Source: Candidatus Poribacteria bacterium
GTDB lineage: Bacteria; Poribacteria; WGA-4E; PCPOR2b
DNA: 64,000 nucleotides
Reading direction: 5' to 3'
Assembly: GCA_965116925.1 (NCBI GenBank)
Contig: OZ220744.1
Span: 4,224,001-4,288,000, forward strand
A model generated the notes under the pieces. It did no database searches. It had not been told where the DNA came from and was given only the letters and a program-made list of their open reading frames with translations. Below are positions 11,361-11,677 of the stretch, one piece after another. Made by a program: the position numbers and the translations under genes. Every line of letters starts with the position of its first letter. Position 1 is the stretch's first letter.

Positions 11361-11391
11361 CGTAAAATCTCCCTGTTACCACCGTTCCGAC

Positions 11392-11443
11392 CGAAAACAA
11401 AAAAAGGGCTGCGTCCTCAAATCGCGCAGCCCCCTTGTTTTCG
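11392..11443 (-). terminator. Leader terminator/attenuator hairpin, cassette 1
   Basis: GGGCTGCG...CGCAGCCC followed by a T-run about 40 nt upstream of the ATG. Same structure at 13846-13896. Confidence 0.7.
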
Positions 11444-11444
11444 A

Positions 11445-11473
11445 TTGAAACCAATGGCATCAAAGGGTATACT
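11445..11473 (+). promoter_or_regulatory. Antisense sigma70-type promoter in the cassette 1 leader
   Basis: TTGAAA-N17-TATACT, conserved at 13898-13926. Confidence 0.65.
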
Positions 11474-11478
11474 ATAAA

Positions 11479-11575
11479 ACAGTTGTTAGGCGTTCTCCCT
11501 AACAATCACGAAGCGATTCGAGGTTATGTCTCGTGCTGCTTCAGGGGGCTTCGAGCGGCAACTCGGAGCTCCCAC
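11479..11575 (+). ncRNA. Candidate three-hairpin antisense sRNA (cassette 1)
   Basis: Stems TTGTTAGG/CCTAACAA, GAAGC..CGAG/CTCG..GCTTC and GGGGGC..GAG/CTC..GCTCCC are shared with copy 2, while the loops differ. Confidence 0.5.
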
Positions 11576-11648
11576 AAAACTCAAGGAATATCCTTGATCA
11601 GAAAGTTTGAAACCGGCCCTACTGGACCATTTTCCTTTCCAATGTCCG

Positions 11649-11677
11649 ATTATACAACAAAAAGCGCGCAGCTGCAA
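11649..11677 (-). promoter_or_regulatory. sigma70-type promoter of cassette 1
   Basis: TTGCAG-N17-TATAAT on the - strand. Confidence 0.6.

Follow-up and report, generated by a model that had tools for sequence, protein, structure and literature searches.

RNA I of ColE1 is an antisense RNA of about 100 nt with three stem-loops, whose loops of 6-7 nt vary while the stems stay constant; it acts by blocking the formation of a primer rather than through termination. Tandem chromosomal copies are seen in type I toxin-antitoxin systems, for instance ldr/rdl and hok/sok, where a cis antisense RNA is combined with an mRNA fold that masks the ribosome site. Kissing-loop specificity also underlies engineered RNA switches of the pT181 type. 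In pT181 itself, an 87-nt counter-transcript (RNAI) is directed against the untranslated leader of repC, where a pre-emptor sequence pairs with the 5' arm of the terminator hairpin (stem-loop IV) and the ribosome site lies in the same hairpin (PMC5703833). The RNAIII-repR systems of pIP501 and pAMbeta1 are described as having convergent promoters within the leader, antisense-induced premature termination and two loop pairs, with a leader of 329 bp and an RNAIII of 136 nt in pIP501 (PMC4981023). In Shigella flexneri, RnaG is a cis antisense RNA of 450 nt, made from a single locus on the virulence plasmid, which attenuates the surface-protein gene icsA and whose convergent promoters interfere (PMC2879508). 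Antisense-driven attenuation is so far known in a handful of plasmid replicons and in a single virulence gene.

Two related leaders, copies A and B, precede minus-strand genes for exported proteins in a window of 64,000 nucleotides (the whole stretch of DNA that we analysed) from a Candidatus Poribacteria bacterium. Comparison with their relatives suggests that the leader is a portable, chromosomal, cis-antisense-controlled transcription attenuator of the pT181/pIP501 type, a reading to which we assign a probability of about 0.7. Judging from sequence comparison, an antisense RNA most likely shuts off the exported-protein genes by forcing an early stop of transcription.

Layout and distribution of the leader

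In both copies, all parts of the leader claimed in the first-pass annotation were found, arranged as claimed when read along the minus strand (Table 1), and the opposite promoter sequence, TTGAAA-17-TATACT, was seen in each. The sense promoters of A and B are not homologous. The loop pairs had been quoted exactly (in mRNA sense, GAGAACG/GTGGATA, ACATAAC/AGATAGA and TTGCCG/TGCCAG), and the differences between A and B do sit in the loops, with 10 of 20 loop bases differing in a pairwise alignment vs about 5 of 66 in the stems and internal loops. The annotated GC-rich terminator with its U-run is present, but it forms only the top of a far longer hairpin that extends to the ribosome site. The family spans the genus and is not a matter of two copies. 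Folded as the + strand, the three hairpins scored z -6.8 (A) and -7.1 (B), with 0 of 200 shuffles equally good. P1 of copy A is the 3' hairpin of the predicted antisense RNA. Downstream of its predicted start, copy A is extended at the 5' end by about 65 nt, which form two small hairpins; 11 copies have this extension in common.

Table 1. Predicted features of the two window leaders (A and B) and their cargo genes
Feature	Position	Strand	Remarks
Sense promoter A, TTGCAG-17-TATAAT	11649..11677	-	predicted start ~11642
P1 hairpin A	11544..11573, loop 11561-11556	.	12-bp stem, fully paired on + (antisense) strand
P2 hairpin A	11510..11542, loop 11529-11523	.	putative switching element
Antiterminator 5' strand (pre-emptor) A	11513..11522	-	within P2 3' arm
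P3 hairpin A	11483..11505, loop 11497-11491	.	dispensable in family
Predicted antisense RNA A	11480..11576	+	~95-100 nt, P3'-P2'-P1'; both ends predicted
Antisense promoter A, TTGAAA-17-TATACT	11445..11473	+	-35 box inside 5' arm of long mRNA hairpin
Antiterminator 3' strand A	11416..11425	-	terminator 5' arm top and loop
Predicted intrinsic terminator A	11399..11434	-	GC stem 11434-11406, U7 at 11405-11399
Extended hairpin A, ~35 bp	11369..11467	-	includes terminator; pairs first ribosome-site bases in read-through RNA
Ribosome site A	11373-11369	-	ATG A at 11360
Sense promoter B, TTGACA-17-TAGAGT	14037..14065	-	predicted start ~14030, few bases before P1
Hairpins B	13936..14026	.	P1 14026-13997, P2 13995-13963, P3 13958-13936
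Antiterminator 5' strand B	13975-13966	-	within P2
Predicted antisense RNA B	13933..14030	+	~95-100 nt; ends predicted
Antisense promoter B, TTGAAA-17-TATACT	13898..13926	+	
Predicted terminator B	13853..13887	-	antiterminator 3' strand 13878-13869; U6; top of long hairpin
ATG B	13814	-	
Cargo A1	11082..11360	-	92 aa; signal peptide and Cys-stapled helical hairpin (predicted); hypervariable family
Cargo A2	9754..10917	-	membrane anchor at N-terminus; middle region variable; YGxEEGLRRLRE motif conserved at C-terminus
Cargo A3	9506..9757	-	83 aa; hydrophobic N-terminus
Cargo B1	13380..13814	-	144 aa; signal peptide homologous to A1, mature part unrelated
Cargo B2	12319..13365	-	348 aa; membrane-anchored partner

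Besides five full leaders, the source genome holds a divergent copy, a 3' half and a remnant made up of hairpins only. By BLAST, the leader was matched in 17 of 19 same-genus Poribacteria genomes, at up to 12 copies per genome, and in 0 of 21 other relatives. An nhmmer search over the fetched loci and the source genome returned 92 matches, 81 of them near full length and 79 distinct; the structure counts given below omit the 11 partial matches. A covariance model made from 59 of the 79 distinct copies matched 27 of 151 genomes from the phylum. Strong single copies in four genomes from two other families retain both the layout and exported-looking cargo, and near-identical copies in other families occur patchily. 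Among the weak distant matches (L118, L120, L117, L119 and L121), one has 9/10 of the antiterminator and three end after P2; in L120 the terminator directly follows P1-P2.

Sequence searches found the leader in neither plasmid nor phage sequences. Among public sequencing runs, two held the leader, both as contigs that attest the DNA, and no RNA run was listed. Pattern scans of viral and metagenome sequences returned 54 and 27 loci, which we regard as chance since only 1 of the 81 matched the model, weakly (E 0.015), and a viral scan using the neighbour protein returned no match. In a search of Rfam that included Poribacteria-1, the window gave no match at the gathering threshold and only chance-level matches at E 10; the same was true of the known riboswitch aptamer models of Rfam 15 (0 at gathering). 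Poribacteria-1 (RF03113) comes from the same phylum and is a structured motif upstream of genes, but its sequence differs from that of the leader, and we rejected it as an identity for the leader on finding no match in the window, the genome or seven leader loci. Sub-threshold Poribacteria-1 matches (L319-L322) were seen in 4 of 101 genomes, with no genome reaching the cut-off, which makes for a weak positive control; they are unrelated to the leader in sequence, and two of the four are near-identical across families and end at a ribosome site and ATG. Our literature search returned no published description of the leader. The main text of PMC5737381 does not mention Poribacteria, and its supplement, which lay outside the scope of the search, may cover related motifs.

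Predicted antisense promoter and antiterminator, and the proposed switch

The first-pass annotation had proposed that an antisense RNA of about 100 nt gates termination, and comparison argues for this through three features: the pattern of the opposite promoter, the strand on which mismatches are tolerated, and an antiterminator within the region that the RNA would cover. The opposite-strand -10 retains T-12, A-11 and T-7 in 76 of 79 copies; the antisense promoter is missing from 3 of 79. Variants of the -10 (TATAAT in two copies, TAAAAT, TACAAT, TATATT and TAAACT) change inner positions only, and four of the six shift toward TATAAT. At the -35, TTGAAA (47 copies), TCGAAA (12) and TTGACA (7) predominate, so that seven copies have a perfect TTGACA, and the spacer is 17 in 72 of 79. 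The sense-strand hexamer that overlaps the antisense -10 is less conserved; the long hairpin places an additional constraint on the antisense -35 box.

P1-P3 fold more stably as antisense RNA in 78 of 79 copies (mean -11.5 kcal/mol). Changes were counted as events on a tree of leaders, which recombination may distort. In P1 these comprised 43 A-C and 11 G-U events, an A-C mismatch in the mRNA being a G-U pair on the antisense strand. The terminator showed the opposite (4 A-C and 18 G-U events), and the bias differs between the two elements (Fisher p 9e-7). At the event level the strand bias is strong only for P1 (P2, 14 vs 10, p 0.54; P3, 6 vs 5), although a single pair within P2 stands as A-C in 72 of 79 copies. 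The antisense consensus contains 21 pairs, 12 of which show two-sided change. No U-tract follows the last antisense stem (mean 2.1 U in 8), which speaks against the antisense reading, as do the three copies without the promoter.

A sense promoter matching at least 9/12 positions ends 7-12 nt upstream of P1 in 46 of 81 copies, a placement which gives a predicted sense/antisense overlap of about 97 nt. The source genome encodes Rho, while Hfq was not found there and RNase III (PF00636) was found in 0 of 20 genus genomes, the source included (controls positive in 8 of 14). The failure to find RNase III and Hfq would fit a steric mechanism better than cleavage of the duplex.

The 3' strand of P2 is complementary over 10 bp to the top and loop of the terminator arm. 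A first search pattern for this antiterminator parsed 64 distinct copies and missed 15 of 81. A contiguous P2-to-arm helix of at least 9 bp occurs in 73 of 79 copies vs 1.4% of arm shuffles, and on the alignment 93.9% of antiterminator cells are paired vs 13-51% for slid partners. Two-sided change affects 3 of 10 pairs and is sparse, amounting to 9 cells and about 4 events. The expected number of antiterminator pairs in the nascent fold reached 6 or more in 65 of 79 copies, leaving 14 with fewer, vs 1 of 60 arm-shuffled controls; a P2-shuffled control was weak and uninformative, as 28 of 60 reached 6 pairs. For the window copies, the antiterminator dominated the nascent folds with P 0.98 and 0.90. 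Equilibrium folds of copy A at fixed lengths placed the antiterminator at P >=0.92 with the free 3' end at 11416-11408, yielding at 11406; blocking the region covered by the antisense RNA let the terminator form by 11408. RNA polymerase covers about 12-14 nt of nascent RNA, so the antiterminator would still be favoured as the enzyme reaches the U-run. Once the terminator 3' arm is free, the terminator beats the antiterminator at equilibrium in 72 of 79 copies, and the switch would therefore have to be kinetic.

Seven copies without the usual partner (L075, L077, L081, L074, L078, L079 and L065) pair the P2 loop and its flanks with the arm instead, which indicates that the topology outlasts the sequence. 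In six of these seven copies P3 is absent and the antisense promoter reads TTGACA-17-TATACT. A P1 loop kissing the terminator loop was considered for this subfamily and rejected, because folding places P2 there instead. Elsewhere in the leader, the terminator stem is 99% paired, with a tail averaging 6.9 U in 8. A long hairpin of at least 25 bp is present in 80 of 81 copies (median 34 bp in full-length leaders), and the ribosome site is paired within it in 71 of the 74 copies in which a site was found. About 11 of the 79 copies lack P3 or have it in reduced form.

The same hairpins could belong to a sensor. P1-P2 might form a small-molecule riboswitch or a protein-binding element whose ligand stabilises P2, frees the arm and turns the genes off, with the opposite promoter incidental or secondary. 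Such a sensor would use an identical expression platform, and a common signal would suit the regulon-like spread of the leader over exported proteins. P2 is strongly conserved (0.26 bits), P1 and P2 share a CGAG-loop-CUCG apex, and the hairpins stand without the promoter in 3 of 79 copies and in the weak distant matches. However, P2 pairs twice, in its own stem and in the antiterminator, which largely explains its conservation. A sensor also leaves aside that both the folding and the mismatch tolerance of the hairpins favour the antisense RNA, that the promoter hexamers vary as those of a promoter would, that loop length is fixed while loop sequence is free, and that no Rfam family matched even at E 10. 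We consider a sensor unlikely.

Under antisense-controlled attenuation, events would run as follows. As the promoter patterns suggest, transcription of the mRNA would begin at P1 or a little upstream of it, while some 100 nt further downstream a sigma-70-type promoter facing the other way would produce a three-hairpin antisense RNA over P1-P3. When no antisense RNA is present, the weak sense P2 is computed to pair, through its 3' strand, with the newly made top of the terminator arm, a pairing that is conserved; the terminator then could not close, and the exported-protein genes would be transcribed. By analogy with known systems, the antisense RNA may use the loops of 6-7 nt to capture the nascent leader and sequester the P2 strand, whereupon the terminator would fire about 40 nt upstream of the start codon. 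Read-through RNA is computed to relax into a hairpin, about 34 bp long, in which the ribosome site is masked, so that only the antiterminated fold would be translated.

Interference from convergent transcription probably contributes as well. Interference could even be the main action, through collision or supercoiling, with the antisense RNA a by-product and the terminator a fixed leak. The promoters converge about 100 nt apart, the antisense RNA, lacking a terminator tail, may extend across the sense promoter, and interference contributes to control in pIP501 and icsA/RnaG. We regard this as very unlikely for the Poribacteria leader, as it leaves unexplained the selection on antisense folding, the fixed loop lengths and the presence of an antiterminator within the overlap. 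A leader-peptide attenuator can be dismissed: a start-like triplet precedes P1 in 74 of 81 copies, but frames shift, lengths range from 5 to 84 codons and most copies lack room for a ribosome site.

Loops, cargo and locus

Across the 79 copies, loop entropy is 1.3-1.5 bits vs 0.26-0.53 in stems. The loops are fixed at 6-7 nt, with 36 P1 forms and 43 P2 forms among 81 copies, and all six near-full copies in the source genome differ in their loops. The first-pass annotation had taken such differences to mean that each cassette has a private, loop-specific RNA. As a selected rule this was not supported, since same-genome copies share loops no less than chance: identical P2 loops occurred in 15 of 219 same-genome pairs (7.8 +/- 2.8 expected from shuffled labels) and identical P1 loops in 10 of 219 (8.0 +/- 2.8 expected). 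Both loops were shared in 5 of 219 pairs, one of them formed by two different cassettes in one array. Every change is copied onto both strands, so complementarity is automatic and loops may drift; free drift of this kind explains the loop pattern. A conserved U-turn (YUNR) was not found in the P2 loops (4 of 40 sense, 11 of 40 antisense) or, with an imperfect parse, in the P1 loops (7 sense and 8 antisense of 36).

If the attenuator acts as proposed, copies with shared loops should cross-repress. A more far-reaching version, which we hold to be possible though doubtful, is that loops act as addresses genome-wide, over up to 12 copies, such that copies with shared loops repress each other and copies with new loops escape. 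Were it true, the leader would provide dosage compensation for growing cassette arrays, in genomes of which 0 of 20 had a detected RNase III, as well as an expression burst on entering a cell without matching RNA. It would also generate cell-to-cell variation in the hypervariable secreted peptides displayed by a sponge symbiont, amounting to plasmid-style incompatibility redeployed for a variable secretome.

Each window leader heads a minus-strand cassette that encodes a small signal-peptide protein and a larger membrane-anchored protein and closes with an end terminator. The A1 family has four invariant cysteines and a predicted helical hairpin; A1 itself gave neither a family nor a fold match. 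B2 has 267 homologues, with no Pfam assignment among the 120 matches listed. By a crude test, a hydrophobic N-terminus was present in 62 of 79 first ORFs (chosen automatically) vs 25% of 1996 background ORFs, and a twin-arginine motif in six further first ORFs. An anchored partner lies behind 28 of 81 leaders, and relatives of the partner protein were found in Candidatus Poribacteria at 69 of 69 loci. Among 55 scanned cargo proteins, 6 had Pfam matches (GMC oxidoreductase, two Ig-like, PD40, VWA and a methylase), the Ig-like proteins being lipoproteins. Predicted cargo folds reached pLDDT 64 and 73, and fold searches with them returned generic helix matches only; protein atlas searches for cargo function gave no usable match. 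As far as our literature search reached, it returned no description of secreted Cys-rich proteins in Poribacteria, and the hypervariable Cys-stapled peptides with their anchored partners constitute, within that reach, an unstudied part of the sponge-symbiont secretome.

Several other cargo arrangements were observed. In L093 (copy E of the source genome) and five relatives, the leader precedes a twin-arginine GMC oxidoreductase, which we take to resemble cholesterol oxidase, and the antiterminator is weak. A conserved 94-aa winged-HTH gene follows a long extra leader in four copies (L092:2928-3233, L014:2048-2332, L026 and L027). Of 141 genomes, 4 encode this protein, with two distinct gene neighbourhoods among them, and we rejected it as a shared regulator of the leader given its presence in only those four genomes. 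A second shared leader with small hairpins stands before the same cassette family, about 70 nt upstream of the small ORF (L169, L170, L172, L173 and L174).

That the cargo is harmful, as had been suggested, was not borne out: toxin families in Pfam and NCBIfam gave no match, the cargo is diverse, and the same cassettes also lie behind other leaders. Three of seven partner genes in the source genome are without the leader. Of 69 partner loci, 21 have one within 2.5 kb and 48 have no strong leader match nearby, which argues against a lock indispensable to the cargo. These data bear equally on the idea of a type I toxin-antitoxin-like locus, with a double lock on a harmful product and a private antitoxin RNA for each. 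Two locks are indeed predicted (the terminator and the hidden ribosome site), tandem paralogues in the source genome differ in loops, and some cargo peptides are hydrophobic. Against these, the cargo includes enzymes and an HTH protein, its signal peptides look cleavable, partners without a leader are common, and paralogues share loops; moreover, under attenuation no pool of stable mRNA would persist that could bring about killing after loss. The chance that the locus works in this way seems slim.

The window site is a variable array between an ABC permease gene and a xylose-isomerase-like gene (9068-14134; orthologues L031, L032, L033 and L050). Across the genus it holds from 0 (five genomes) to 4 units with differing cargo, the gap ranging from about 0.8 kb, empty, in G011 to 9.3 kb in G009, where it contains 4 units. 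In front of extra units, the 3' end of the permease gene is often found repeated. Segments shared downstream of each cassette and palindromic genome-wide repeats were noted in three sets (9256-9372, 12064-12180 and 8150-8192; 9117-9237, 11947-12043 and 15891-16006; 11684-11722), together with a very high contig depth. Two adjacent transposase-like genes (390 and 394 aa) occupy 4230-6622, between inverted repeats at 4210-4233 and 6886-6909.

The variable unit number, the repeated permease end and the patchy near-identical copies in other families would suit a DNA-level repeat or recombination site, in which bottom-strand hairpins of the attC or REP kind move cassettes and the RNA features are by-products. 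Yet the leader is always sense-oriented, its promoter, terminator and ribosome site keep fixed spacing, no terminal repeats were seen, and the G-U/A-C bias reverses between P1 and the terminator. We give this explanation scant credence and favour antisense-controlled attenuation.

Comparison with known antisense systems

RNAI, the pre-emptor and stem-loop IV of pT181 each have a predicted counterpart in the Poribacteria leader. In contrast to pT181, where the controlled gene encodes a Rep initiator, the leader is chromosomal, multi-copy and placed before exported proteins. Its promoter layout matches that of pIP501, whereas the CopR repressor and the target U-turn of pIP501 were not found for the leader (HTH cargo in 4 of 141 genomes). 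The leader is no member of the pT181/pIP501 replicons, having no rep gene and no sequence match in plasmids or phages. Unlike in ColE1 RNA I, P3 is dispensable and insulation of the loops is not selected at the family level. From type I toxin-antitoxin loci it differs in cargo, which matched no small membrane toxin family, and in control, which is predicted at termination.

With at least 79 natural variants, the family would extend antisense attenuation to an uncultivated phylum and to host-facing cargo. Its natural loop variants, among them a subfamily whose antiterminator is rewired, also form a library for tests of kissing-loop specificity. The nearest surface-protein case is RnaG-icsA, which comes without a portable family with variable loops.
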